A stretch of DNA of 64,000 nucleotides from Candidatus Bathyarchaeia archaeon (GCA_049513715.1 JBEKVV010000001.1:352001-416000), one strand, 5' to 3'. Numbered from the stretch's first letter, positions 20,680 to 58,646 are shown. Made by a program: numbers and translations. Notes: generated by a model not told the origin, from the sequence alone.

Positions 20680-21894
20680 TTGATCAGGATAGGCCTGATT
20701 GGGAAAACCAACGCGGGCAAAACAACGTTTTTCAATGCAGCCACCCTGCTGAGTGCCCCGGTTTCAACGTACCCGTTCACCACGAAGAAGCCCAATATCG
20801 GGCAAGCCTACGTGCGCACGGTCTGCGTCTGCAAGGAACTTGGCGTCAGGGATAACCCGAAGAATTCAACGTGCATTGGCGGTGCACGCTTCATCCCCGT
20901 TCAACTGATCGACTTACCGGGACTGATCAAAGGCTCCTGGATGGGAAAGGGGTTGGGGTCCCAATTCCTCAGCGTAGCCTCCCAAGCGGATGCCCTCATT
21001 CACATCACCGACGCCTCTGGAAGCCTCGATGCGGACGGAAAACTGACGAAGCCGGGTATGGGAAACCCCGTATCCGATGTGTACGATATTGAGGAGGAGC
21101 TTGTCAGGTGGGTCTCCAAGAACATCGAAAAGACTCTCAAGAAGATGAGGAGGCACTCCAAGAAAGGTGCCTCGACCGTGAGTCTCCTTGAACGAGACCT
21201 AGCTGGCCTGAAGGTCACACCCGACCACATTGTCAAGGCTCTTGAACTAAACGGTCTCATGGATAAGGACCCGGGGAAGTGGAATCGTGATGACCTGTGG
21301 AACTTTGCGAAGAGTGTTAGGCAGATTTCAAAGCCAACCCTCATAATTGCCAATAAGATGGACTTGTCGCCGGCCGAAAGGAACTACGCGAATCTCGCGA
21401 AGGAGTTTGGCCAAGCTTTCGTTCTTCCGGCCTCCAGCGATGCAGAACTGGCGCTAAGGCGTGCGGAGCAGAAGGGTTACATACAATACCTGCCGGGCGA
21501 GGAAGTGTTCCGTGTGAAGGACAAAGAAAAGCTAACCGCTGATCAAAGGGAAGCGCTAACCTATGTTCAACAACGCGTCTTCTCGAAATGGATTCAAACT
21601 GGCGTACAATTCGCCATCAACACGACTGTGTTCAAGCTTATGGGCATGAACACGGTCTACCCCGTTGAGGACATTGAGAAACTCGCAGACAGGAAGGGCA
21701 ACGTGCTGCCCGATGTGTTCCTGGTCCCATACGATGCCACTGTCAAAGAGTTGGCCGCACAGGTTCACTCGGATTTGGCCAAGACAATGCTCTATGCGAT
21801 TGACGCGCGCGCCAAGATCAGGCTACCTGGTGATTATAAGTTGAAAGATCGTGATGTCGTGAAGATAGTCGCGGCCACCAAGGGAAAGGGCTAG
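20680..21894 (+). CDS. ychF: Obg-family YchF/Ola1-like NTPase with TGS domain
   Basis: GKTNAGKTT, YPFTT, DLPG, NKMD, C-terminal TGS. Confidence 0.92.
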   Translation: MIRIGLIGKTNAGKTTFFNAATLLSAPVSTYPFTTKKPNIGQAYVRTVCVCKELGVRDNPKNSTCIGGARFIPVQLIDLPGLIKGSWMGKGLGSQFLSVASQADALIHITDASGSLDADGKLTKPGMGNPVSDVYDIEEELVRWVSKNIEKTLKKMRRHSKKGASTVSLLERDLAGLKVTPDHIVKALELNGLMDKDPGKWNRDDLWNFAKSVRQISKPTLIIANKMDLSPAERNYANLAKEFGQAFVLPASSDAELALRRAEQKGYIQYLPGEEVFRVKDKEKLTADQREALTYVQQRVFSKWIQTGVQFAINTTVFKLMGMNTVYPVEDIEKLADRKGNVLPDVFLVPYDATVKELAAQVHSDLAKTMLYAIDARAKIRLPGDYKLKDRDVVKIVAATKGKG

Positions 21895-22451
21895 GACCTG
21901 ATAACCTTCAGCAAATCAGCCCTTGTAATAATCCCCAATATGCGCCCTCGCTTGGCAACGAGCACTGCGGGCTCATACTGAAGAAGCGCTGAAACCGTTG
22001 ATAGGGGTGTTTCTTCGCTAACTGTAGGGAAAGCCTCATCCATGATCTTCTCCACTGACTGCTTAGAGACATCGTCCGGGTTTGGGGCGGAAACAAGTTT
22101 CTCAAGGATGATCTTCTCGGTTAGGCTACCGACGACTCGGCCGTCGCTGAAAACCGGCAACTGCGAAAAGCCTGTCTCACGCATGACGCGCACTCCCTTC
22201 GCCACTGTTTCATGTGACTGCACTCCGACGATTTTTCCGTGGCTGACCACTTTTGCCTTCACCTCATTTCGTCGTTCTAGACTCTCCAGGGTGTCGAAGA
22301 CTGCCTTGGTCTTCGTGTAAGAAGGACTAGTCCTTCCGCCCTCAATTTTCGCGATCATGGATTGGCTGACCCCTGCGAGTTTGGCGAGTTGCTTCTGGTT
22401 CAGCGTGAGGAGTCGCCTGCGCCGTCCAATCTCTTCCAGTTTGGGTAGCAT
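21891..22451 (-). CDS. XRE-HTH plus CBS-pair transcriptional regulator
   Basis: QKQLAKLAGVSQSMIAKIE HTH; FSQLPV and GIITRADLL CBS motifs. Confidence 0.92.
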   Translation of the reverse strand: MLPKLEEIGRRRRLLTLNQKQLAKLAGVSQSMIAKIEGGRTSPSYTKTKAVFDTLESLERRNEVKAKVVSHGKIVGVQSHETVAKGVRVMRETGFSQLPVFSDGRVVGSLTEKIILEKLVSAPNPDDVSKQSVEKIMDEAFPTVSEETPLSTVSALLQYEPAVLVAKRGRILGIITRADLLKVIRS

Positions 22452-22477: not shown

Positions 22478-22489
22478 TTCCTAGGAGAA
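22478..22489 (+). repeat. putative attL core TTCCTAGGAGAA
   Basis: identical to 32740-32751; adjacent 22494-22517 matches 32777-32800 at 19/24 nt. Confidence 0.7.
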
Positions 22490-22541
22490 ATGGATAGGAA
22501 CATAGCTTTTGGAATACTGAATCGTCAAGAAATGAAACAAT

Positions 22542-23027
22542 TTAGGCGCGCCAGGGGTCTACCCGGTCGTAAGTGATCTGTCTAGCTTGGTTCGTGGCTA
22601 TCTCAAACTTGAAATGGTCAACGGGTGGAACGGTGTTCTTCACTAGCATCTCGTCAACTATTTGGCACCAATCACGGAACGACTTTATTATGGCCTGCCT
22701 TGTGACGGGTTTAGCTGTCAGCATCCAATTGAAGAACTTGGCCGTTCGCCCGTTAGGGAACTTCTGCATCGCGGCTTTCATGAGTTGCTTAGAGGTGGGA
22801 ACCGTCGAACGTTTCACGAGTTCAAAGAAGCCTCCATCAGTTGATTCATACCCATGCTTTTCTCTAGTTATCATGCGCTCACGTTCCAATCGGTGAACCT
22901 GCTTCCAAACCGTTCGACTACTCCACTTCCTCCTGAGTGCATATTGGCTGCACGGGCCATGCATTGCGATGTGTTCAAGGATTTCCAGTTCTTTGCCTAT
23001 TGGTTCAAATGATCGCGTCATTCTCAA
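22542..23027 (-). CDS. winged-helix DNA-binding protein
   Basis: ILEHIAMHGPCSQYALRR…TVWKQVHRLERERMI pattern. Confidence 0.7.
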   Translation of the reverse strand: MRMTRSFEPIGKELEILEHIAMHGPCSQYALRRKWSSRTVWKQVHRLERERMITREKHGYESTDGGFFELVKRSTVPTSKQLMKAAMQKFPNGRTAKFFNWMLTAKPVTRQAIIKSFRDWCQIVDEMLVKNTVPPVDHFKFEIATNQARQITYDRVDPWRA

Positions 23028-23099
23028 GACCTGTTTACAGGGGTAAACAGGTAAGCTCCACCTTAAAACTATTAGCTCCTACTACTGAATAATAGGGAA

Positions 23100-23249
23100 A
23101 TGAGTTTGCTCACCATCAGGTCGCTATCCCTAGATGAAAAGCAACTGTCAGAACTCGAACGCGTAGCCAAAGGCGAAGACCGCAGCGTTTCCTATCTTGT
23201 TCGACAAGCCATCAATCAATATCTCAAGAGTAAGGCGGCTGCGTCTTGA
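23100..23249 (+). CDS. ribbon-helix-helix (CopG-like) regulator
   Basis: MSLLTIRSLSLDEKQLSELERVAKGEDRSVSYLVRQAINQYL; divergent from the wHTH gene. Confidence 0.8.
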   Translation: MSLLTIRSLSLDEKQLSELERVAKGEDRSVSYLVRQAINQYLKSKAAAS

Positions 23250-23413
23250 CTTCTTCATCAGCATGCACTTGGTGCTCAAAACAATTCAGGGCAGCCAGCC
23301 AGGAGGAACTTGGGAAACTCATGAACCAACATGAGCCCGCATGCCCGAGGAATCCTAACACTTTCAATGCCGCTTTGCGCCAACTCGTTGATCAGAAACA
23401 GAGGTCGTCCTAG
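23246..23413 (+). CDS. 55-aa C2HC zinc-finger micro-protein
   Basis: TTG start overlapping the previous stop; CTWC…HEPACPRNP. Confidence 0.6.
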   Translation: MTSSSACTWCSKQFRAASQEELGKLMNQHEPACPRNPNTFNAALRQLVDQKQRSS

Positions 23414-23416
23414 TCC

Positions 23417-23533
23417 TTGGCAATTTCCCTTCCCTGCGTGAAATGCAATCAACCAATCGGTGAACTTCACGATCCAACTTTGGTCGACAAAATCAGTCGG
23501 CATATGCAACTATGCCCAGGAGCCAAACAATGA
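23417..23533 (+). CDS. 38-aa C2HC zinc-finger micro-protein
   Basis: MAISLPCVKC…RHMQLCPGAKQ. Confidence 0.55.
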   Translation: MAISLPCVKCNQPIGELHDPTLVDKISRHMQLCPGAKQ

Positions 23534-23630
23534 CTCGTAAGCCTCCGCATGACTTGACGTTAAAGCGAGAACGGGTTTCTAGTGCTGGAACCTCTGCTTA
23601 TGGTTTATTCGGCTGGGGAGATCGAGCCCA

Positions 23631-24203
23631 ATGAAACGCATAAGGCTACATCACTCAAAGCGGCCTATTACACTGGAGGAGTTAGGGCGCCGAGTTAACG
23701 CAGAACAGAATCTAGCAGACAAAATCGAGGCGACAGTAAAACCTCAGATAGAAGCATACCTCACGGCTTTGAAGTATCCGAAAGGCATGATGTCCACGAC
23801 CGACAGCGCCGAAGTCCGCGACATTCTGAGGCGTATGGAGCGACAGGTTTCCCCCGGTCATAAATTAACCTTTCAAGATGAATCACGAATCGCGAGGACA
23901 GTTGAGGCTATGAGTCAAACCATCGTACCTTTCTCCGACGCGGAAATTGACGAGCAAAGAAAGCAGATTTCCAGTCTAGTATTTACGATGATTCGCTTTG
24001 CCAAGGAAAACCAACGTCTTCAGGATTTGAGAAAAGAGCAACTAGAACTCCTAGAAACTGCGAATAGGCAACTGGAACTTATCACACGCGGAAATGCTTT
24101 GCTGATTTCCCTAGGTGAACTCGAATCAAGATTACCCGCTATAGTCGATAGCTTACACACTTCTCTACCAAAATTCGGCAAACGGTTAGGGGTAGCCTCA
24201 TAG
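23631..24203 (+). CDS. coiled-coil hypothetical protein
   Basis: 190-aa ORF in the operon; heptad-rich C-terminal half. Confidence 0.7.
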   Translation: MKRIRLHHSKRPITLEELGRRVNAEQNLADKIEATVKPQIEAYLTALKYPKGMMSTTDSAEVRDILRRMERQVSPGHKLTFQDESRIARTVEAMSQTIVPFSDAEIDEQRKQISSLVFTMIRFAKENQRLQDLRKEQLELLETANRQLELITRGNALLISLGELESRLPAIVDSLHTSLPKFGKRLGVAS

Positions 24204-24451
24204 TGGCGTGGGAATTGGGGAAACATATGAACGTCCAAGTCACGGGCTGGGGCGCTAGGTTTCTTCTTTCACCTAGCACAAAAAGGGCGCAAGTTTTCAC
24301 GTCGCGGTCTAGGTTTCCCGCCTCGTGTTGTTTCCTTGCGGCCTTTTCCTGGCGCCTCAACCCGAGACATTCACAATCACAAAGAAACCGGCAGGGAGCC
24401 ACCGGTACAGCGCTTTGGCCCCCGTCTTTGCCCATGTGGAGGCAATGAATT

Positions 24452-25600
24452 TTGATTTTTGCGGATAAACAGGTCTTCAAGGAAACATATGTGCCTGACA
24501 AGATCCTTCACCGAGATGACGCTATCTCAAAGATCCAGCATATTCTAGCCGACTTTCAGAGAAATGCCAAACCTCGCAACATCCTCTGCCTAGGAGGGTT
24601 AGGCACTGGCAAGACCGCTGCCCTTCGCTCTATTTGCAGGGAGCCACCTAAAGGCGTCAAAGCCGTCTTTGTGAACTGCGCCGAAACAAACACCCAGACA
24701 AGAATATTCAGGGCCGTTCTCGAACAACTCGGCGTCACGGTGAAGACCGGATTCCCTGGCGATTATTATTTGGGCTTGTTCAAGGCAGCCCTTCCACCAC
24801 GTCTAATTTTGGTATTTGACGAGGTGGATCGGCTGATTCAGCACAGGGAAAGCGAATACGAGGAATTGTTCTACACGCTGATGCGAACCGTCGACCCAAA
24901 GGAAGTTGTTCTAATAATGCTAACGAACAAGTTCAACCTGGAAACGTTTCTACTCCATGAACTCGACCCTAAAGTTAGGGACACTCTTCCCTTTGAACGG
25001 ATTGAGTTCCCTGATTATATGGCCTCGGAATTGAACGACATCATCTCCGCACGTGCAGAAATAGGATTCAATTCTTCAGCATATGACTCCGGAACAATGG
25101 CTCAAATCGCCCGCATTGTCTACGAACGTGGATTACGGGCTAGAGGGCTAATAGACCTAGGTCGAAAGGCAGGGGAAATGGCGGAATCAAAACAACATGA
25201 GAAAATCACTGAGGAAGACATCAACACAGCAAGCATCGAACTGCTACATGGCCGGAGCCTAGAGGTCATAAATCGGCTTCCACCCAACCTCCGCGCAATC
25301 CTAGCGATCATCCTACTCAAATCACCTATCATTGAAGAGGCTTACAGCCAATTCAAGAAGACTGCGCTTGGAAAAGATGTAACCAAGAACGTGTTCTACG
25401 GCTACCTAAAGGAACTTGAGACATTTGGCTTAGTCGAGAAGAAAACAATCAGTCGAGGATACGGAAGAGGCGTAATGGTTCGCCTCAGCGTAGCCGACGA
25501 ACTCAGAAGCATGGTAGCCGACAGCCTCGCAGACACCACCACCCCACCGGACCAAATGAATTACCACCAACCACTACCACCACTACAACCTACAATATAA
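24452..25600 (+). CDS. cdc6: Orc1/Cdc6-family replication initiator (element-encoded)
   Basis: YVPDKILHRD, Walker A GGLGTGKT, VNC, Walker B VFDEVD, FPDY, C-terminal wHTH. Confidence 0.92.
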   Translation: MIFADKQVFKETYVPDKILHRDDAISKIQHILADFQRNAKPRNILCLGGLGTGKTAALRSICREPPKGVKAVFVNCAETNTQTRIFRAVLEQLGVTVKTGFPGDYYLGLFKAALPPRLILVFDEVDRLIQHRESEYEELFYTLMRTVDPKEVVLIMLTNKFNLETFLLHELDPKVRDTLPFERIEFPDYMASELNDIISARAEIGFNSSAYDSGTMAQIARIVYERGLRARGLIDLGRKAGEMAESKQHEKITEEDINTASIELLHGRSLEVINRLPPNLRAILAIILLKSPIIEEAYSQFKKTALGKDVTKNVFYGYLKELETFGLVEKKTISRGYGRGVMVRLSVADELRSMVADSLADTTTPPDQMNYHQPLPPLQPTI

Positions 25601-25772
25601 GAAATGAATGAAAATGTATCACCAGACGACGACAACAAATTCATTTAACGCGCTAGGGGTGGCGGGGGGTCTTCTTTTGAGTAGAAAGGGAATTACCCGT
25701 AGAACCGGGTCTCTCGGGTCTCATTGTGTGTGCTGTGGTACACAAAACGCCATTATTGGAGGATTCTCCTGA

Positions 25773-26042
25773 ATGAGAAAGAAGATGGGTCAAGCGCGGC
25801 CGGGGAATCAGAACGCCAAGAAGACGCTTGCTTGGGTTGACAGTTTCGATCTAAGTTCCCAGGAGGGTGTCAGGCAGTTTCTTGCGGAGGTTGTCAAAGC
25901 CACTTGGACCGGAGACTTGGGTTCTAGGGCGGCGGGTGCTTTGAACGGGAGCCTTCGCCTTTTGCTGGAACATGAAGTTCTACCGCAACTTGAGGCACGA
26001 ATCAAAGTCTTAGAGGATAACAGGGGAATGAAAGGGAATTGA
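25773..26042 (+). CDS. small protein with GNQNAKK motif (terminase small subunit-like, tentative)
   Basis: GQARPGNQNAKK N-terminus; LEARIKVLE C-terminal coil. Confidence 0.55.
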   Translation: MRKKMGQARPGNQNAKKTLAWVDSFDLSSQEGVRQFLAEVVKATWTGDLGSRAAGALNGSLRLLLEHEVLPQLEARIKVLEDNRGMKGN

Positions 26043-26227
26043 CGAGAATCAAGAAGCTGAATGAACGCCTAGACGCTCTTGAGCCGAACCTAGTTTCAAA
26101 GGTAATTCGACCAATCATCTTTCGCGGTCGACGGATTGAGACAGCTCGAGACGTTGATGAAGTCGTGGAGCAGGGAGGCCGAACCTATGCAGCAACCGCG
26201 GAAACCGAGGAGGATGTTCAGAATTGA
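26039..26227 (+). CDS. small hypothetical protein
   Basis: 4-nt overlaps with neighbours; N-terminal KKLNERLDALEP coil. Confidence 0.6.
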   Translation: MTRIKKLNERLDALEPNLVSKVIRPIIFRGRRIETARDVDEVVEQGGRTYAATAETEEDVQN

Positions 26228-26610
26228 CGAAAATCAGCAACCTTGAGGAACGCGTACATCGACTGAACCAAACAGAGGCAGTTATGCCACCGTTGCCGCC
26301 AAATTCTCAATGCCTAATCGGTAAGCTCGTTATTCGTGCTCTCCTAATCTGTGACCATGAAGACAAGTCGTCTAGTGTTGAGGCTACGAACGAAGAACTA
26401 GAGAAACTCATAGCTGAGGGCGGCGGCGAGAAATGGTGCAACAATCCGGCTGCCGTTGAGTCTCTCCGCTTAAGACGCTGGTTCATCGACCACGACAAAT
26501 TAGAGAACCTGATTCCTCGGCTATGCTACACCACCGAGATTAGCCAGGTTGACCGAGACATAGCGAACCAAGAGCAGAAACTAGAAACGAATCGGAAGGT
26601 AATTGCCTAA
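26224..26610 (+). CDS. hypothetical protein
   Basis: coupled ORF; N-terminal SNLEERVHRLN coil. Confidence 0.65.
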   Translation: MTKISNLEERVHRLNQTEAVMPPLPPNSQCLIGKLVIRALLICDHEDKSSSVEATNEELEKLIAEGGGEKWCNNPAAVESLRLRRWFIDHDKLENLIPRLCYTTEISQVDRDIANQEQKLETNRKVIA

Positions 26611-26972
26611 TGACGAAATCAGAACTCAAGAAACTAGGGACACGGATTGATTCACTAGAACCTAAACCAGTGAATGCGGCGAATACGCGTAGTGAGCTGC
26701 TTCGTGGCCTCGTAACTCTTGGCGAGGACGATCAAGTATGTCTCGCCTATCTGATTCGAGACCTAGAAAAGGAGAACGTCGAACCAGAGAACTTTGAGGC
26801 TTGGCTTTCTAAGCGGCCCGAGAACCAACAAGCGTTAGCGCGGAAGGTCCTTGCACCTCTCAAAGAAAGACTCGACGCCGGCGCCGCGGAGTTAATGCGT
26901 GATAGTGACCTTGCGAAAGCTCAAGGTCTCACCGAAGAGGCGAAAGGAGACGTGGCAAGTCACGGTGAGTGA
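26610..26972 (+). CDS. hypothetical protein
   Basis: coupled ORF; N-terminal KKLGTRIDSLEP coil. Confidence 0.65.
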   Translation: MTKSELKKLGTRIDSLEPKPVNAANTRSELLRGLVTLGEDDQVCLAYLIRDLEKENVEPENFEAWLSKRPENQQALARKVLAPLKERLDAGAAELMRDSDLAKAQGLTEEAKGDVASHGE

Positions 26973-26975
26973 ATC

Positions 26976-28826
26976 ATGACTATTTCTCGGCAAACCATCG
27001 GCCTAATTCTCCTAGAAGAATGCGACAGCCTCGGGGCTTGGACGAAACAACACACCGCCTCCGCATATCAATCCGTTGACACAACCGATAAACAGTCTGG
27101 CACTGCCTCTTTCCTCACAACATCATCCAATTCGACGAGTCCCTACTATTCATATGGCGCTTTCACTAAACAGTTGAACATGGGGACGGGTGTCGGCAGA
27201 CTCATTCGGATTTTTTACAAGGTCCACAATGCTGGCGTCGGAATAACTGTCGGCGCTTTCGCCGTTTACACAACTGATTGGAAGTCACCTGTGGTCCGTG
27301 TTGGAACCGTCGGGGGCGCGACCACTTGGTCAACTGCAACATATGAAACTCCCGCAGGTAACCCTGAAGGCATACAGAACTGTGAACTCGCCTTCGCCTA
27401 TGCTTTTTCAGGTTCCACCATTCATGCGGATCGTCTCGTAATCTGCCAAAGCAAAAACCTGATCCTAGCGGATCTTGCTGTTGGGCAGACGGTGCTACTC
27501 TACAGGGCCAGCGGCACATTTTTGGACACGCAAACCGTAGCCGCCGGTGCGTCTTCGGTTACGTTCGACGTTTCCGCCGAGAACGTCCCCGAAAACATGT
27601 ACTTCAAAATCTACGCAAGCGACGGCACCACCCTCATCGAAACCACGACCACTTGTGAGATGTGTGGGGGCGACGAATGGACCTGGACCGCTTCGCCGGG
27701 AACTTTGACTTTAGCTGCTGATGCTTTCATTATTCTCGCCTCATCCACAGGTTCTCCCACTGCTGCTCCCTACGTAGTGCGGGCAACGGCTACGCTTAGG
27801 AGACTGAACGGCGACCCCTATACTGGAGAAGCAATTAGCATCATAGTTGGACGCCCCGACGCAGTTACTTATTGTGATTCTAGCCTAACAACTGACTCAA
27901 ACGGGGAAGCATGGTACGAGTTTAATTCCACTGTGGGTGGTCTTCAAGTAGTTGCGGCAATTTGGGGAGGTGACGCCACGGTTCCCGCAGCAACCGTCCA
28001 CGTTGTGGTGCACGTGTTTGCGGCTTTGGAAAAACTGGACAAGAACAAGAACTTTCAGCTATACGTTGAGGGAACCGAGTACGAGTTCAACGGCGGCAAC
28101 TACTACCTTTGCAGCGAGAACGTTCTCGGACAGTTCGAAGTGACGGTTCCAACTTGGCCCGATGTGAAGCCCGTAGTCATGGGGCTTGTTAGCATTTACA
28201 GGAAAGGTGTGAAGGAGTTCGCTGGGGTCCTCAAAATCGTTGAACGCGGTTTACTGCCGAAAACCATTACTCTGACGGGGCCCGACATTTCATGCCTGCT
28301 CGACAGCGTAACCGTAGACTACGAATCCTATTCAGCGAAAACCCCGCAGTATATTCTGAATGATTTGATTACGAAGTTTCCTTGCGGTCTCACGGTTGGC
28401 AACTTGGAAACCTACTCGGGGGATCCGATTAGCCTCGACATATTGAATTTGAAGCTCAGGGAGGCAATCAAGAAGGTTTGTGATGTAGTTGGATGGATCT
28501 ACCGCGTGAACATGGATTACAGCTTCGACGCCGGTTCATCGTTCGGAACCTACAGCAGCGCGGCTTTCGTTGAAGGCGACACCGACAACCCTCTGTTACC
28601 TGGGTGCAGAGTGACCCCGGACTACACAGTTGCCTCCAATGACATTCACAGCCGAGGCGCAGGCGAAGCCAATTCTTCCCTTTCCAGCACAGCCCAAGAC
28701 GCAGCAAGCATCATGGAAATCGGCCCGCAGCAAGCCCCGGTCTTCCAGAAAACTCTGAGCCACCAAGGCACACTTGACACGTCAGCGCGGGCAGAACTGA
28801 AACGCAGAACTCGCCGGACCGCATAA
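26976..28826 (+). CDS. virion tail/baseplate-like protein with beta-sandwich and Ig-like domains
   Basis: Thr/Ser-rich beta protein; Big-1-like TATLR…LTTDSNGEA; C-terminal third resembles tail-hub proteins (LTGPD…LL, LREAIKKVCD…W.YRV). Confidence 0.55.
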   Translation: MTISRQTIGLILLEECDSLGAWTKQHTASAYQSVDTTDKQSGTASFLTTSSNSTSPYYSYGAFTKQLNMGTGVGRLIRIFYKVHNAGVGITVGAFAVYTTDWKSPVVRVGTVGGATTWSTATYETPAGNPEGIQNCELAFAYAFSGSTIHADRLVICQSKNLILADLAVGQTVLLYRASGTFLDTQTVAAGASSVTFDVSAENVPENMYFKIYASDGTTLIETTTTCEMCGGDEWTWTASPGTLTLAADAFIILASSTGSPTAAPYVVRATATLRRLNGDPYTGEAISIIVGRPDAVTYCDSSLTTDSNGEAWYEFNSTVGGLQVVAAIWGGDATVPAATVHVVVHVFAALEKLDKNKNFQLYVEGTEYEFNGGNYYLCSENVLGQFEVTVPTWPDVKPVVMGLVSIYRKGVKEFAGVLKIVERGLLPKTITLTGPDISCLLDSVTVDYESYSAKTPQYILNDLITKFPCGLTVGNLETYSGDPISLDILNLKLREAIKKVCDVVGWIYRVNMDYSFDAGSSFGTYSSAAFVEGDTDNPLLPGCRVTPDYTVASNDIHSRGAGEANSSLSSTAQDAASIMEIGPQQAPVFQKTLSHQGTLDTSARAELKRRTRRTA

Positions 28827-28840
28827 GGAGGCGAATCTGA

Positions 28841-28975
28841 ATGGATGAGTACATTTGCGGCGATTGCGGCGTGAAAGGCGAAGTACCGTTCCGAATTGAC
28901 AGCACTAGACCGTTTTACTGCAAATCATGCCTTGCGAAGCGTCGCCAGAAACGAGACGTAGCCTCGAAGCAGTGA
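28841..28975 (+). CDS. CxxC-x17-CxxC zinc-ribbon micro-protein
   Basis: MDEYICGDCGVKGEVPFRIDSTRPFYCKSCL; GGAGG RBS-like upstream. Confidence 0.75.
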   Translation: MDEYICGDCGVKGEVPFRIDSTRPFYCKSCLAKRRQKRDVASKQ

Positions 28976-29047
28976 GAATCCTGGACTTGTTCAAGTGCCC
29001 GCATTGCGAGGAACGGTGGCCGTCAAAGGCCTTCTTGAAAGTTCACC

Positions 29048-29260
29048 TTAGAACCAAGCATCCAAACCCTCCACCCGCCTGACAGAAAGTCCCGATGTCG
29101 GTACTTTCTCAGTGGGAGTTGTGGGTCTCACAACCTTTCCAGTTCCACCGCAATCGGCGCATTCCTCAAGATACCCGGTAGTTCCCACGATATGCCAATG
29201 CCCAAGAGCTCCTAGGCAAGATATGCAGGTTTCCAATTCTTTCTCAGTCAACCATACCAC
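29048..29260 (-). CDS. small DnaJ-type zinc-finger protein
   Basis: CISCLGALG…CADCGGTG. Confidence 0.5.
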   Translation of the reverse strand: MVWLTEKELETCISCLGALGHWHIVGTTGYLEECADCGGTGKVVRPTTPTEKVPTSGLSVRRVEGLDAWF

Positions 29261-29682
29261 CGAGTCGACCTTCGATCTCGTGGTGACTTAACCGAGGAAC
29301 CTGAGTGAAAATCAACGGTCAGAGATAGATGAAAGAAAAGAAGAACAACTGCGGACTATGCACGCTTATTAGTAGAGAGGAAAATGTTTGATTCCTACAC
29401 TAACCATGCATCCGCCCACAGCGCTCAGAGAAATCACGACCATCAAAGCTAGGCCCATTACGGTCGTTCCTCCGATCGAGCCGACATTAATCATGACGTT
29501 GTAGAGGTAATAGACCAGATCATGCATAAGAACGATCCGGAACGCTTCATCAACGACCGCTCCGTCGAATACCCTGTGTGTCTTGTGATGGTTGTTTCCT
29601 ACACGAATCACACATTTTCAATGAGGCTCTATTCTACACCTAGCACGGAAAAGAGACAAGAAAAAAGAGACGTAGAGACATT

Positions 29683-29712
29683 AGTACTAATGAGTACTAC
29701 TGAGTACTAATG
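29683..29712 (+). repeat. three tandem 10-bp units AGTACTA(A/C)TG
   Basis: agtactaatg agtactactg agtactaatg. Confidence 0.8.
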
Positions 29713-29869
29713 AAAAGGATGGGAAAAACTAATGGAAAAGATGGAACATGTTGTCGGCTAACAATTCGACCGCCTCATGTATCACATGAGCGGTTTCCTT
29801 GGCTTCTTGTAATACCTTCTTACCCGACATGATATGCGCCACGACTATTCAATGTGCGAGTCGCTTATT

Positions 29870-30310
29870 TTATGCTTTCTTCTGAGTCTTAATGGAGGCA
29901 GCATAAAAGGCAGCTCCGATTATAAAGAGTAAAACCCCTGCGACCAAGGTTTGAACCCGCAATTCAATGATTTGTTGACCGGGATAGGTCTGTCCAGTCG
30001 CGGCAAAATAGAAGGCTCGAATACTCCAAGTAATCAGAAAGCTTGCAATCAGACTGCCTATGACTGCTCCTAGCCCTCTAGTTTTCGTCAGCCCTTTTCG
30101 ACGGTCAAGTGTGATGAGCGAAGCCGCTACAAATACGCAGCTCAGAATCCAAGGGGTCTGTAATATGAGCACGGCCGTTATGATGGGCTCTCCATTTTGG
30201 AGGGCATAGGACACAACCCCCCCAGTCCGATATGAATCGGCAATCGTAACAATTATCGCAATGAGACCTAGGAATCCTATAATCACATCAAATAATGATT
30301 TCCCTTTCAA
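29870..30310 (-). CDS. four-helix membrane protein
   Basis: four hydrophobic segments. Confidence 0.7.
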   Translation of the reverse strand: MKGKSLFDVIIGFLGLIAIIVTIADSYRTGGVVSYALQNGEPIITAVLILQTPWILSCVFVAASLITLDRRKGLTKTRGLGAVIGSLIASFLITWSIRAFYFAATGQTYPGQQIIELRVQTLVAGVLLFIIGAAFYAASIKTQKKA

Positions 30311-30491
30311 CGGGCAATGCCCCGAAGCATGGATATGGGAGTTGAAGAATTACCTAAAACTGCTTCGAAAGGGCTATCCGACGGTTTTTTACAGCCCTAA
30401 CCATCCGACACCAACTTGAGACAGCCTACCTGAAAGCCCAAGAAAAGAGACGGTCAAAAAAAGAGGAAAGAAAAGACGGGAGGCTAAGTTT

Positions 30492-30851
30492 TCAGCGTTT
30501 GCTCTCAGCCTTCTCCCGGGCCTTGTACATTTCGTTGAGGAAGCGTAGGTTCTCGGCTCCCGCGGTGTCCGGTTTCTCGCCCTTCGCGTCCTTGAAAATT
30601 TCATCCATATTATTTAGGAGACGTAGCCATTTCTGGTCTTTCCGAACCAGCAGCGCGGCGTTTTCCTCTAAGACGGTTTTGATTCCCTCAAGGATCGCCA
30701 TGTCCAAACTAGGGAAGCGCCCATGATTCACCAAGTCACACATGGCCGAGTATGCTAATTCCGGTAGAAGAAAACCGTTCAAGAGCCAGTGATTGACGCC
30801 ATACCAGGCTACCGTGCTATAGTGGCTTCTCGGTTTAGATTTCTTGCTCAT
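30492..30851 (-). CDS. hypothetical protein (RHH-like core)
   Basis: ATG at 30851 overlaps the upstream stop; DLVNHGRFPSLDMAILEGI resembles RHH helices. Confidence 0.55.
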   Translation of the reverse strand: MSKKSKPRSHYSTVAWYGVNHWLLNGFLLPELAYSAMCDLVNHGRFPSLDMAILEGIKTVLEENAALLVRKDQKWLRLLNNMDEIFKDAKGEKPDTAGAENLRFLNEMYKAREKAESKR

Positions 30852-31147
30852 TCTGATTTCACCTCCGCGGGTTTCCGGTGGACCGCGAGATACGCGGCCA
30901 TCCAATGTTTACACGGCAAGCCGGTTACGCTGCCTCTGTGGGTCCAGTCGGGGCAATCGCATGACCGGCCTACTAGGTCCACTTGGTAGGTTTTCGCTGG
31001 GTTGCTTTGACTTCGCACTAGGAACATGCCTGGACCGTTTTCCTCTACGAGATCCACGAGGTTTACGGCTCGGTCTAGGCGGGTGCTTACGCGGAAGAAG
31101 TCGAGTAGTTCTTTCTCGGTTGTTTCGTTCAGAATGAAGCTAGCCAT
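30848..31147 (-). CDS. SWIM zinc-finger protein
   Basis: YQVDL…CDCPDW…PCKHWMAA. Confidence 0.88.
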   Translation of the reverse strand: MASFILNETTEKELLDFFRVSTRLDRAVNLVDLVEENGPGMFLVRSQSNPAKTYQVDLVGRSCDCPDWTHRGSVTGLPCKHWMAAYLAVHRKPAEVKSE

Positions 31148-31197
31148 AGTGTTTATCCCTGCACACTATAGGTATAAGCATAAACTATTTAACCGTT

Positions 31198-31443
31198 GTG
31201 TATGAATACACAGTACAGATGCCTATGCGATACAAGAACGGAGAAAGACCCAAACACATCACAGAGTGCCTACGCAAGTCTGCCCCTAGAGACCTATCCA
31301 TCGAGGAAATCTCCAAAGAAACCGGCATTCATAGAAACACCGTCTCGAAGTATGTCTACAGTCTGGAGAAAGAGGGCAAGATCGTTTTGACCCGCCAAGT
31401 TGGAGGCGCGAAGTTCTACACGGTCAAAGAGGGTAAGGGTTAG
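31198..31443 (+). CDS. winged-helix regulator
   Basis: SIEEISKETGIHRNTVSKYVYSLEKEGKI. Confidence 0.85.
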   Translation: MYEYTVQMPMRYKNGERPKHITECLRKSAPRDLSIEEISKETGIHRNTVSKYVYSLEKEGKIVLTRQVGGAKFYTVKEGKG

Positions 31444-31446
31444 GGT

Positions 31447-31617
31447 TTGGAGTCCATCTTGGCCTTCAAGTTAAGCGGCGAATGGATCGACGGCGCCAAG
31501 AAACGAATCGAGATCGCCCACCAAACCCGCCTCAGCAACCCACGCCTAAGCGTCGACATTCTCCTGGAAGTGGTGGGTGAGTTGCTTAAGCGGTTGCCCA
31601 CTGAGACCGAGACCTGA
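31447..31617 (+). CDS. 56-aa hypothetical protein
   Basis: TTG start 3 nt after the wHTH stop; fills the gap to the integrase. Confidence 0.45.
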   Translation: MESILAFKLSGEWIDGAKKRIEIAHQTRLSNPRLSVDILLEVVGELLKRLPTETET

Positions 31618-31623
31618 ATTTCT

Positions 31624-32715
31624 CTAGGCCTTCTTGTCTTTCGGTGTCTCTTTCCGTTCGCTTGGCACAAACGGGTGTCCCTTTTCGTCGCTCACTATGA
31701 AGCCTGAGGTGGCTTGGAGCATTCGAACCGCTAAGCGCAACTGCGCAACTTCCTCTTTGAGGGTTTTGACTTCTTCGCCGCTTGCCATTGCGGGACCGTA
31801 GACTTGCCGGAGTTCGCCCCACATCCAGGGTTCATCGTTGTAGCATTGAATGTACCCTTTCTGATCCAAGATATGGCCCAGCGCGAACTCTGAGGCCTCA
31901 AACGAAATCTTCTGCAAAGTGCATCTGGTCCTGAAACAGTCTCGTAGGTCATGCAACGTGACTCGTGCTTTAGGTGGAGGAATCGGCGCCCTTTTCAGAG
32001 CTGTGTTGAAACTTGATTCCAAGTAAACAACGGCTACATTGTACCTCTCGTGGTCTAGGGGTAAGCCTTTGATTGTGCTGATTGGCAGCGTGATTTCGGA
32101 GGCGAAGATTTCCCTTAGAACCGCCGTTGGAATCAATGAGTAGAAGGGCTGATCGTTGTTCTTTCTGCCTGCGAAGTCGAAACGGTAGTATTCAGCCGTG
32201 GGATTTCTGGCTAAGTAGTCCTTGACCTGCTTCCATGTTTCCGCCTTGTTGAACTCCAAGAACTCCGAGCATCCCCAGGCGCTGTGAAGCATCAACTCGA
32301 AAACTAAATTGTACGGTTTTCCAGCCGCGTTAGCGACCGCTTGCGCTTCCTCCCAACTCAGAAACCCCTTCCTATGCGCGGCTCTCTCCTCTCTACTCTT
32401 CTGATGGCTTAGGCGATCTTGGGGAGGATAGAATCCGTTCGCTCGTAGGAAATTCCTAAACGCTAACAGCGCCTTATGTCGACCGGCTGCCGTCATGCCG
32501 TTCGTGTTCTTGGCGTCGGTCCAAACTTGGTTAATGTCCGCTTTCGCTTTCAGAAGAACTTGTTCCGGTGTGAGATCCATGCCTTTCAGCAATCGACGCA
32601 AATACGCGCGATAGTATTTCGCGCCATGTTCGCCGAGTTCTCCCGCTTGCAGTTTGTTCTGAATCCAGGTCTCAATCAGGTCGCTCAATTTGTTCTCCGT
32701 ATTCCAAATAGGCAT
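31624..32715 (-). CDS. tyrosine recombinase/integrase (first catalytic Arg replaced)
   Basis: HDLR, SEFALGH, downstream Tyr; box I reads MLHSAWGCSEF. Confidence 0.88.
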   Translation of the reverse strand: MPIWNTENKLSDLIETWIQNKLQAGELGEHGAKYYRAYLRRLLKGMDLTPEQVLLKAKADINQVWTDAKNTNGMTAAGRHKALLAFRNFLRANGFYPPQDRLSHQKSREERAAHRKGFLSWEEAQAVANAAGKPYNLVFELMLHSAWGCSEFLEFNKAETWKQVKDYLARNPTAEYYRFDFAGRKNNDQPFYSLIPTAVLREIFASEITLPISTIKGLPLDHERYNVAVVYLESSFNTALKRAPIPPPKARVTLHDLRDCFRTRCTLQKISFEASEFALGHILDQKGYIQCYNDEPWMWGELRQVYGPAMASGEEVKTLKEEVAQLRLAVRMLQATSGFIVSDEKGHPFVPSERKETPKDKKA

Positions 32716-32739
32716 GTAGTTACATATGAACGTGCTGTT

Positions 32740-32751
32740 TTCCTAGGAGAA
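32740..32751 (+). repeat. putative attR core TTCCTAGGAGAA
   Basis: identical to 22478-22489; 25 nt upstream of the integrase start. Confidence 0.7.
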
Positions 32752-32810: not shown

Positions 32811-34016
32811 GTGAAGCGCGAAATGAGCAAACCTCGAAGCCAATCAGAAGGCGCCGCGGCGTTGACCCACAGGCCAAGGTCGTTCCTGTTCACATCTGAA
32901 AGCGTTACCGAAGGCCATCCGGACAAAGTGGCCGATCAGATTTCGGATGCCATCCTAGACGCCATTCTCGAAAAGGACCCGACGGCCAGGGTCGATATTG
33001 AAACGCTGATAATGAAAGGAACCGTCGTAGTCACCGGGCAAATATCAACCAAAACCTACGTAAACATGCCAGAGGTCGTCCGCAGTGTTCTACGAGACAT
33101 CGGGTTTGATGATGCGAAAGTAGGCCTCGACTGGGAAGCATGCGGTGTTCTCGTTTCCGTTGAGGAACAGTCGCCTGACATTGCAATGGGTATCGATAAG
33201 GAAGACATGGGGGCGGGCGATCAAGGCATGATGTTCGGCCATGCAACGAATGAAACCCCCCAACTAATGCCCTTGCCCATCGTGCTTGCCCACGGCCTCG
33301 TGAGGAGGTTAGCTGAGGTAAGGAAACAAAAGATTCTCCCTTACCTGCGCCCAGACGGGAAATCGCAGGTAACCGTGGAGTACGAGAACGACAAGCCGAA
33401 ACGAGTAGATGCTGTAGTGATCGCTGCTCAACACGACGAGAGCGTGTCCCGAGAACAACTGAAGAAAGACATTATCGACAAAGTCGTCAAAGAAGTTGTC
33501 CCGAAGAACATGCTCGACGACAAAACGAAATTCTTCGTCAACGAAACTGGAAGGTTCACGATAGGCGGCACTTTGGCTGACACGGGTCTGACGGGGCGAA
33601 AGATAATTGTTGATACGTATGGCGGAATTGGCAGCCATGGCGGCGGATGCTATTCCGGAAAGGACCCAACCAAAGTCGATCGGTCCGGAAGCTACATGGC
33701 ACGCTACATTGCAAAGAACATAGTTGCCGCAGGCCTAGCGGACAAATGCGACGTACAAGTAGCCTACGCCATAGGGGTCTCCAAACCCGTCTCAGTCATG
33801 GTAGATACGTACGGGACCGGAAAGGTGCCTGACGAAAGAATCACGGAGGCAGTAAAGAAAGTGTTCGACATGAGGCCAAAAGCAATTATCGAACAACTCA
33901 AACTGCGCAGGCCAATCTACAGGAAGACGGCCGTGTATGGACACTTTGGGCGGAACGATCCTGACTTTCTGTGGGAACGCACCGACAAGGCTGAAGAGTT
34001 AAGGAAGAACATCTAG
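32811..34016 (+). CDS. metK: S-adenosylmethionine synthetase, bacterial/eukaryotic type
   Basis: [40 protein letters not shown]. Confidence 0.97.
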
Positions 34017-57575: not shown

Positions 57576-58646
57576 CTAGGTCTTCTGGAGCTGCTTCATC
57601 TTCCGCTTGATTACAGCGAGAACCTCCGGATCCTCAAACAGCCTGTCCATGTAGCTGTCCGGTTTCTTCCGGGCCTCTTCCTTCTCCTCAAGGCGGGTTA
57701 GTTTATCTCGGAGTTCCTCGACCTCTTCCTTTGTGGGGATTGTTGGCTTCCACAGTTTCCCAAGTTCCCTGGCCATGTATCGCTCGTCCAGGGTTTCTCT
57801 GCTGTAACCGTACCGGTCGGTGCCGTGGCCCATGCAGAACTCGCTGACCGCATAGGCCACTTCGGATTTGCCGCATTGACTTTTGAAGCTGGACCTCAGT
57901 TGATGTGGCCCTAGGCCGACCTGCCACAGTTTCACTTTCTTCGCTGCTCTCCTCCAAACATTCTGTAAGTCGTGGGCATCGATCAGTGTGCCTCCCCGGT
58001 CCTTGGAGAGCTTGGTCTTCATCGGAAACTCGGGCACGTGCTGCTTAGGTACCAAGGTGAAGAAGTCGTTCAACGTCGACTTCCTAGGCGAGAGAGCGAT
58101 TTTGATGTACGGTTTCTCGTTGTTTCGCTGCGTCTCGATCTTGCGTTGGATCTCAAGGGAGTTCTGGATCTCCGAGACCTCGTCCTCACCGAGACCGGAC
58201 CAGAGCATGAATTTGAAGAGGCTTCGGTAGGGTTCGTCGGTTTCCTGGATTATGGTGCTCGCGTTCTCCCAGGTTAGTTCAGGTTTGCTTCGGACACGTC
58301 GAACTCTGATCTTCCCGTTCACGTGCATGTCGACTTCATGAAACTCCAGGAAGCTGCGCAGCGCGTATTTCGTCAAGTGGGCGGCGTTCATGGAATGCTT
58401 GTAGATCTCTCCGAGTCTTCCTTTGACTTCTATCGCGGTTTCCCGGGGGTTCTGTTGGGCTCTCTTTAGGAAGCTGGCGGGATCCTCGTTCCCGAAGAAT
58501 CGCGTGAGGAAGATGACGTATTGGTTGCGGGTGCTTTCCTTGAGTTCTGTTCCTACGCCGTTCAGCCATGATTTGACCTCTGGGGTTGCAGAGAGCTTCG
58601 CGAGAGCCTCAGTCAACTTGCTGCGCCTCGCTTTGGATTTCGTCAA
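57576..58646 (-). CDS. tyrosine recombinase/integrase (first catalytic Arg replaced)
   Basis: HQLR, SEFCMGH, RYGY; box I reads MLWSGLGEDEV; homologous to 31624-32715. Confidence 0.88.
   Translation of the reverse strand: MTKSKARRSKLTEALAKLSATPEVKSWLNGVGTELKESTRNQYVIFLTRFFGNEDPASFLKRAQQNPRETAIEVKGRLGEIYKHSMNAAHLTKYALRSFLEFHEVDMHVNGKIRVRRVRSKPELTWENASTIIQETDEPYRSLFKFMLWSGLGEDEVSEIQNSLEIQRKIETQRNNEKPYIKIALSPRKSTLNDFFTLVPKQHVPEFPMKTKLSKDRGGTLIDAHDLQNVWRRAAKKVKLWQVGLGPHQLRSSFKSQCGKSEVAYAVSEFCMGHGTDRYGYSRETLDERYMARELGKLWKPTIPTKEEVEELRDKLTRLEEKEEARKKPDSYMDRLFEDPEVLAVIKRKMKQLQKT

Follow-up and report, generated by a model that had tools for sequence, protein, structure and literature searches.

The stretch of DNA analysed here (64,000 nucleotides, in the following the window) corresponds to positions 352001-416000 of contig C1 (JBEKVV010000001.1) in the genome of a Candidatus Bathyarchaeia archaeon (GCA_049513715.1; G000), which comprises 2.79 Mb in 11 contigs and is 99.4% complete. 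Window positions 22478-32751 hold a 10,274-bp insertion, referred to below as the element, whose ends are marked by exact copies of a 12-bp direct repeat, TTCCTAGGAGAA (22478-22489 and 32740-32751). Its left neighbour is the gene of a CBS-domain helix-turn-helix (HTH) regulator (21891-22451, minus strand), and its right neighbour is metK, encoding a bacterial-type S-adenosylmethionine synthetase (32811-34016). The left repeat copy (attL core) lies within a conserved palindrome in the CBS-HTH/metK intergenic region, the right copy (attR core) ~60 bp upstream of metK. Besides this repeat, the two 400-bp boundary zones have no word of 10 or more bases in common, and the chance expectation for a 12-bp boundary repeat is ~0.01 by our own arithmetic. 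The repeat scan, run at a minimum length of 14, did not list it.

A MetK search of 31 related genomes gave a match in 16, all from the genus of the window. In eight congeners (G018, G013, G017, G012, G015, G011, G001 and G010), the CBS-HTH gene lies next to metK with a gap of ~100-155 bp, and the intergenic DNA of congeners carries the conserved palindrome TATTC-6 bp-GAATA with an A/T-rich box after it. When the left flank of G000, one copy of the repeat and the right flank are joined, the result is exactly the empty-site sequence of the congeners. The element is a discrete, capsid-less insertion, integrated site-specifically at a conserved palindrome in the promoter region shared by the CBS-HTH gene and metK. 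Its insertion duplicated the 12-bp core, so that both host genes retain their own upstream sequence. The original prediction, made from the sequence of the window, had proposed direct-repeat ends, which are exact and from whose flanks the empty site could be rebuilt. It had also named as a possible refutation that the genes might be a stable part of this locus in relatives, without any empty site; in the eight congeners the site is empty. Three metagenome contigs carry a 100% identical element integrated at the same place. No second copy was found at the DNA level in 22 congeners, and no tRNA gene lies within the window.

The same site has apparently been used before. Between two copies of the palindrome at the CBS-HTH/metK locus, ~640 bp of unrelated extra DNA are found in G016 (L005) and ~170 bp in G009 (L013), which were probably left behind by earlier insertions at this attachment (att) site. 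The metK promoter palindrome is a recurrent integration target. Wider gaps between metK and the CBS-HTH gene in G014, G002 and G003 were considered as further elements and rejected, as the genes within them are ordinary ones for transporters, hydrolases and reductases, with no integrase among them. In every congener examined, the CBS-HTH gene is divergent from metK across the conserved palindrome, which by its arrangement looks like a candidate S-adenosylmethionine-sensing operator for metK. The element splits this palindrome and leaves a near-palindrome at each end.

All 21 open reading frames (ORFs) of the element were searched against Pfam and PHROGs. At the right end, a predicted tyrosine integrase (363 aa; 31624-32715, minus strand) matches phrog_1 (7.6e-8), with no Pfam match even at E 10 and no PDB sequence match. 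Its catalytic residues K185, H255, R258, H281 and Y288 are invariant across eight aligned integrases (the element's and seven relatives), and the alignment has Gly at the box-I position, where arginine is expected. Paralogs in G000 show 57% and 36% identity. A second integrase of the window (57576-58646) is 24% identical to that of the element and also lacks the box-I arginine. Adjoining the integrase gene is a predicted divergent regulator pair, formed by a SWIM zinc-finger protein (99 aa; 30848-31147, minus strand; SWIM 9.3e-8) and a winged HTH (wHTH) regulator (81 aa; 31198-31443, plus strand; HTH_11 3.4e-8) with homologs in G017, G008 and G010. At the left end, a second predicted pair consists of a ribbon-helix-helix (RHH) regulator of CopG/Arc-like type (49 aa; 23100-23249, plus strand; RHH_1 2.1e-8; phrog_3180 Arc-like repressor 1.2e-7) and, facing it, a putative winged-helix regulator (161 aa; 22542-23027, minus strand), whose Pfam matches lie below the cut-off (HVO_A0114 0.005, Penicillinase_R 0.009).

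To the right of the RHH gene, the plus strand encodes a Cys/His-rich micro-ORF (55 aa; 23246-23413), recognised by its sequence pattern with no family match, and a coiled-coil protein (190 aa; 23631-24203), likewise with no family match and with an Atlas model that resembles generic long helical hairpins only. There follow an Orc1/Cdc6-type replication initiator (382 aa; 24452-25600; Cdc6_lid 1.9e-10, AAA_22 8.6e-10, Cdc6_C 7.9e-5), an 89-aa protein with a GNQNA motif (25773-26042), three small ORFs of 62, 128 and 120 aa (26039-26972) and a 616-aa, C-terminally truncated protein resembling tail-tip or baseplate-hub proteins (Tal-like; 26976-28826). The genes from Cdc6 to the Tal-like gene are tightly packed, and start and stop codons overlap or abut in the last five. 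The three small ORFs, which have an N-terminal heptad-like motif in common, had been described as coil paralogs in the original prediction. Their N-termini are weakly similar and a 36-nt DNA repeat (78%) lies in their region, which bears this out in part; the similarity is limited to ~25-35 N-terminal residues (62-aa versus 120-aa ORF, E ~1e-3; 62-aa versus 128-aa ORF, 38% over 26 aa). No homologs of the three were found in any locus examined or elsewhere in G000. The idea that they are tape-measure fragments was discarded, as neither blastp nor phmmer detected any similarity.

The remaining ORFs are small. They include a C2H2 zinc-finger ORF (51 aa; 28927-29082, plus strand; zf-C2H2_4 1e-4, under the cut-off), a CxxC zinc-ribbon ORF (70 aa; 29048-29260, minus strand), a small hydrophobic ORF recognised from its sequence (29369-29611), a membrane protein with about four hydrophobic helices (146 aa; 29870-30310, minus strand; no family match) and a 137-aa ORF with no family match or homolog (30492-30905, minus strand). 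No capsid, portal, large terminase (TerL), protease or conjugation family was detected among the 21 ORFs, and no lysis gene family either (0/21); about half of the ORFs have no family, so very divergent genes are possible. About half are orphans even within G000. HK97 capsid, portal and TerL, all missing from the element, are all present in the provirus of G292, which served as a positive example. An Rfam scan of the element gave one sub-threshold, snoRNA-like match only, and a bacterial promoter and terminator scan is not meaningful for an archaeal host. The integrase, the Cdc6 protein (by its Cdc6_lid and AAA_22 matches), the divergent regulator switches at both ends and the lack of capsid, portal, TerL and conjugation genes had all been anticipated in the original prediction and held up. 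Of the zinc-finger micro-ORFs that it listed, the C2H2 ORF matches under the Pfam cut-off and the others are recognised by their Cys patterns only. The GNQNA-motif protein and the tail-like protein are real and can now be defined better.

The GNQNA protein belongs to a well-conserved family, with 16 homologs at 57-75% identity and a profile that finds 105 clusters at 50% identity in a representative library. In the protein, a basic N-terminal arm containing PGNxNAKK precedes two helices and a long helix at the C-terminus; the AlphaFold2 (AF2) model (predicted local distance difference test, pLDDT, 71) has three helices. The family occurs in 14 of 401 genomes of the class, all within the order of the window, and a hidden Markov model (HMM) search of all G000 ORFs found two further members, both on contig C2. 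In one of these, within a sister element (L027), the stop codon of the GNQNA gene overlaps the start of a TerL gene (phrog_2 4e-20, phrog_7579 1.8e-15). On contig C1 of G317 (L153 9908-11524), a single 538-aa ORF joins a GNQNA domain (HMM 1.4e-14) to TerL (phrog_2 8.9e-38). In G117 (L155), the GNQNA gene comes first and is followed by TerL-like, 591-aa, 586-aa and 356-aa ORFs, the 586-aa ORF having a homolog in the head module of the G292 provirus; this locus is a complete-looking head module. Since the gene takes the position of a small terminase subunit (TerS) in three independent places, including one fusion to TerL, we propose that the GNQNA protein is small-terminase-like (TerS-like). The copy in the element itself has no TerL beside it, and phrog_2 TerL is missing entirely from six other GNQNA-bearing genomes, which fits the expectation for TerS-only elements. 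An integrase of the element's family lies within ~6 kb of GNQNA in four of nine further loci. An Atlas feature search for GNQNA returned unnamed small proteins, partly of tailed-phage origin, which we note as a lead only.

For the Tal-like protein, 21 homologs at 30-43% identity were found in a collection of 5.8 billion proteins. The AF2 model built from their alignment (pLDDT 74.9) shows immunoglobulin-like and jelly-roll domains, followed by ~280 residues that match phage baseplate hubs and tail-tip proteins. Foldseek matches include Mu gp44, the MuSo2 43-kDa tail protein, Listeria gp18, the 80alpha baseplate and VgrG; for 3cdd, 1wru, 3gs9, 6v8i and 8fqc, E ranges from 3e-8 to 1e-6 at probability 1.0 over ~275-300 columns, with a template modelling score of only ~0.4 when normalised by target. 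Structure comparison, which the original prediction had recommended for all ORFs, succeeded for the Tal-like protein and gave no fold match for GNQNA. The genomic context of the homologs is uniform. A tape-measure gene lies directly upstream in 10/10 contexts (three congeners and seven metagenome loci), and portal, scaffold, HK97 capsid, Neck1 and tail-terminator genes are found further upstream where annotated. The family is also present on six IMG/VR contigs of 22-34 kb; an IMG/VR scan with the single Tal-like protein and a first profile scan of genome contigs with the Tal alignment gave no match. The Tal-like protein is truly homologous to the tail-tip/baseplate-hub protein of Bathyarchaeia proviruses of the head-tailed type. 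The copy in the element differs from its relatives in two respects. It ends ~76 residues short, whereas 20 of the 21 homologs extend at least 76 aa further, and no frameshifted remainder was found downstream of its stop codon. It is also preceded by the 120-aa ORF and not by a tape-measure gene, unlike all ten homolog contexts. None of the other genes of the element was found near any of the 40-odd Tal homologs examined.

Head-tailed Bathyarchaeia proviruses (contig C29 of G292, G013 and G004; L067-L085) are the source of the Tal-like gene, and G117 is also a source of a GNQNA gene in a head module. In the tailed proviruses, genes for portal, scaffold, HK97 capsid, connector, tape measure and fibres extend over >20 kb, whereas the other genes of the element are not found there. 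Their fibre-like proteins (1430-1561 aa) are 37-54% identical, over the C-terminal 130-190 residues, to domains at six host loci in G000 (C1:26.4-27.1 kb, C1:799.8-800.4 kb, C2:412.7-413.5 kb, C3:110.0-110.6 kb, C3:456.0-456.9 kb and C6:16.8-17.5 kb), which may reflect a surface-protein domain common to virus fibres and host.

The backbone of the element has a different distribution. Its Cdc6 is ~30% identical to cellular Orc1, and homologs of the element type were found in only two of 400 other genomes of the class, G330 (55% identity) and G304 (38%). In G330 the integrase is split and accompanied by a wHTH gene and a zinc ribbon, and in G304 an integrase and a wHTH gene occur with cargo of no recognised function; no virion genes, GNQNA or Tal were found in either. 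Because this backbone recurs in G330 and G304 without GNQNA or Tal, the element is a mosaic of a plasmid-like integrase/regulator/Cdc6 backbone and two genes from head-tailed viruses. The original prediction had also considered that homologs might occur only as fragments of complete proviruses; this is how the tail gene occurs, and it does not apply to the Cdc6/integrase backbone. IMG/VR scans with the single Cdc6 and integrase proteins gave no match, and neither did a scan with the GNQNA alignment.

Two further elements of this kind are present in G000. The sister element on contig C2 (~20.3-27.9 kb; L027 6326-13869) lies between two ubiE-like methyltransferase genes and is ordered as a wHTH gene (minus strand), a zinc finger, a 407-aa protein, GNQNA, TerL, four small ORFs and an integrase 57% identical to that of the element. 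No capsid or portal match and no att sites were found for it. A third element on the same contig (~114.9-127 kb; L025 6872-19400) has a distant integrase, a 125-aa GNQNA-family gene, two homologs (77% and 40% identity) of the 70-aa zinc-ribbon ORF, many zinc-ribbon proteins and no recognisable virion gene. These loci show that G000 holds at least three related 'dark' elements. The genome also carries orphan TerL genes at C4:146839-148203 and C11:1368-2177 and a Terminase_6C fragment at C3:520762-521064; no portal-sized ORF lies directly downstream of the C4 copy.

A non-coding 52-bp motif of the element (30375-30427), present as a single copy in G000, recurs at 85-90% identity once each in G013 and G014 and twice in G004 (L163, L164, L165 and L166), with unrelated flanks. 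The word TCCGAC occurs in it twice, along with a T-run. In both G014 and G004, split TerL genes and a conserved pair of ORFs (115/119 aa) are found 0.6-4.6 kb away from the motif. One possibility is that it represents a candidate packaging or regulatory site.

An integrase, regulators, an initiator and a TerS-like gene without TerL or capsid, held in 10 kb between clean att sites, make up the architecture of phage-inducible chromosomal islands (PICIs). We tentatively read the element as a satellite of a head-tailed (siphovirus-like) Bathyarchaeia virus with a PICI-like build, and place slightly less than even confidence in this analogy. In such a life cycle, the two divergent regulator pairs would keep the element silent, and infection by the helper would lead to excision through the element's own integrase. 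Its Orc1/Cdc6 initiator would recruit the host replisome for replication of the element, and the GNQNA protein, as a small terminase subunit, would bind element DNA and deliver it to the TerL of the helper for packing into helper capsids. The Tal-like gene might be a relic of recombination with a tailed virus or might encode a protein built into helper tails. A bolder form of the proposal, which we consider possible rather than probable, would make the element the first PICI-style satellite of a head-tailed archaeal virus. A GNQNA-keeping family of integrative elements within one Bathyarchaeia order would then steal the packaging motor of its helpers, the Tal-like protein could re-aim virions and the 52-bp site could be a packaging signal.

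Several observations weigh against a satellite. No helper was identified, and G000 gave no match to tape-measure (phrog_58) or HK97 capsid (PF05065) families. A tblastn search of 11 provirus loci against this genome found no structural homolog except the element's own Tal-like gene and a 33-residue connector-like patch; the other matches of provirus ORFs were cell-surface domains and loci syntenic with the flanks. The element is present in 24 peat and wetland sequencing runs, none of them listed as an RNA run. In the contigs of 4 of these 24 runs, it appeared in the integrated form only, at the depth of its flanks and with no joint, which is weak evidence as contigs hide rare forms. The original prediction had suggested looking for both the circle and the empty site; in these contigs neither was seen, and the empty site is known from congeners and not from the same population. 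A k-mer scan revealed no CRISPR array in G000. As for the TerS-like protein, none of 91 GNQNA family members matches a PHROG terminase family (the one match, to a sigma factor, is spurious), Foldseek comparison of the model with PDB and BFVD gave nothing below E 1, and tblastn against 50,697 phage records returned a single match at E 0.2 under the name 'membrane protein'. The GNQNA loci were themselves found by searching for GNQNA, so its presence there is not independent evidence, and the Cdc6-based relatives in G330 and G304 lack it. The Tal copy is truncated and unique, being present in none of nine other GNQNA loci. A provirus that had undergone a large internal deletion would be left with the order TerS...Tal, and the remnants in G016 and G009 show that such elements decay while both ends persist. 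The original prediction had offered an archaeal PICI-like satellite, a cryptic integrative plasmid and a decayed provirus as possible identities; the analysis supports this in part, in that a discrete capsid-less element has emerged and the PICI-like layout gains support from the TerS position of the GNQNA family and from the Tal homolog, and a helper, a circle or packaging has not been seen.

Two of the alternatives carry equal weight. The element could be a deletion derivative of a temperate head-tailed provirus, defective and immobile, which lost everything from TerL through the tape measure as well as the 3' end of Tal and all genes behind it but kept its integrase, its early genes and the att site at either end. 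Consistent with this, its TerS-like and Tal-like genes are collinear with the canonical order of tailed viruses, the missing C-terminal residues of Tal have no remainder downstream, insertion remnants lie between duplicated palindromes at the same site, decayed relatives with split integrases occur in G330 and G017, and the contigs show the integrated form only. However, the early and lysogeny genes of the element were found beside none of the 40-odd Tal homologs examined, so that a parent virus built on this backbone is not known, and the three ORFs between GNQNA and Tal are unlike TerL or tape-measure fragments. The operon is tight and free of stop codons, the integrase and both 12-bp cores appear intact, and other elements with this backbone never contain virion genes. 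Altogether, we regard such a deletion as unlikely.

The other alternative is an integrative plasmid or cryptic integrated element (CIE; Krupovic et al. 2019) that spreads by a non-virion route (e.g. vesicles) or not at all and has captured two genes from tailed viruses, GNQNA having a non-packaging role such as DNA binding in replication or partition. The integrase and Cdc6 backbone without virion genes in G330 and G304 fits this, as do the Cdc6/Orc1-carrying CIEs described in Thaumarchaeota in the accessible part of PMC6563490. GNQNA genes, moreover, mostly occur in genomes without any TerL, and no profile or fold links the protein to known TerS. The fusion of GNQNA to TerL in G317 and its head-module position in G117 are, however, hard to explain without a role in packaging; the good conservation of the family and the TerL gene of the sister element also speak for such a role. 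This explanation, too, we regard as unlikely. A complete virus of an unrecognised non-tailed (spindle-shaped or pleomorphic) morphotype, with a small hydrophobic or otherwise unassigned ORF as capsid and the 616-aa protein for adsorption, is very improbable: half of the ORFs have no family, including the four-helix membrane protein and the hydrophobic ORF, and the size of the element is within the range of small archaeal viruses, but the 616-aa protein has a hub fold that is peculiar to tailed phages and contractile systems, all relatives found for this protein lie in tailed proviruses, the IMG/VR scans for integrase, Cdc6 and GNQNA found nothing, and no spindle-virus ATPase or capsid family matched.

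If the element is a satellite, its closest bacterial counterparts are PICIs, including the Staphylococcus aureus pathogenicity islands (SaPIs), and related phage satellites such as PICMI and VEIMEs. With these it has in common a size of ~10 kb, an end integrase beside divergent regulators, an initiator of its own, a gene proposed to be TerS-like without TerL, the lack of capsid and portal genes and precise att integration. In contrast to bacterial PICIs, its host is an archaeon and its initiator is Orc1/Cdc6 rather than a primase/helicase (Pri-Rep); its TerS-like family has no detectable similarity to known TerS, and a truncated tail-tip gene is present. PICIs are known for helper induction and packaging, whereas the element is known here from genes and contigs alone.

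Among archaeal satellites, pSSVi is also integrative. According to the accessible part of a 2025 preprint (10.1101/2025.02.15.638363), only pSSVi and pSSVx, both of which ride spindle-shaped viruses, had previously been described as archaeal satellites, and a plasmid-type replication module combined with an incomplete morphogenetic module serves there as a criterion for such elements. The element joins two modules of this kind, like pSSVx, pSSVi and the haloarchaeal SRCE described in that text. These, however, carry a spindle-virus ATPase and/or capsid protein, whereas the borrowed genes of the element (TerS-like and Tal) come from head-tailed viruses. TerS homologs are carried by VEIMEs, which are bacterial phage satellites (PMC9618062, accessible part). 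A 2026 preprint, as far as its accessible text goes, presents NMV2S as a putative satellite of the siphovirus-like Asgard virus NMV2 (10.64898/2026.08.12.739948). Like NMV2S, the element is a proposed satellite of a head-tailed archaeal virus and has an Arc/RHH-like regulator; in contrast, no integrase, TerS-like or tail gene is among the ORFs annotated for NMV2S in that text, and NMV2S is supported there by coverage and concatemers, whereas the element is known from contigs and genes. The element also resembles the CIEs of Thaumarchaeota, e.g. NitAQ6f-E1, which in the accessible part of their description (PMC6563490) have short att repeats, a tyrosine integrase, Cdc6/Orc1 and a majority of unknown genes, and lack a full module for virions or conjugation. 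With an integrase, att sites and no identifiable virion or conjugation module, it falls within the CIE definition; CIE is a holding category and not a mechanism. What sets the element apart from CIEs is a promoter palindrome as its target and two genes whose origin can be traced to head-tailed viruses. We found no paper on a PICI-like element in Bathyarchaeia in open-access text, and the terms 'satellite', 'Cdc6' and 'Orc1' do not occur in the accessible part of a paper on Bathyarchaeia viruses (PMC10848311).

The gene next to the target site has a history of its own. The metK of G000 is of the bacterial type, with S-AdoMet_synt N, M and C domains (Pfam). Since this type was found in 15 of 18 congeners but in none of the 12 genomes that represent ten further genera of the order, the distribution suggests that the genus of the window acquired it. 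In G012, contig C19 (L017/L019) holds a second block of GTPase, CBS-HTH and metK genes broken by stop codons, and contig C21 an intact-looking block with one in-frame TAG in metK.

In bacteria, satellites of viruses influence gene flow and phage defence; in archaea, satellites of head-tailed viruses are barely known. The precisely bounded element and the empty site as its control make the satellite question testable in Bathyarchaeia, an abundant uncultured group of soils and sediments, and bring to it a candidate family of small terminases, a tail gene whose origin can be traced and a sister element that has a TerL of its own. Regardless of how that question is answered, the GNQNA family with its 105 clusters gains a first functional hypothesis, the metK promoter palindrome stands as an integration target, and at least three related 'dark' elements reside in a single Bathyarchaeia genome.

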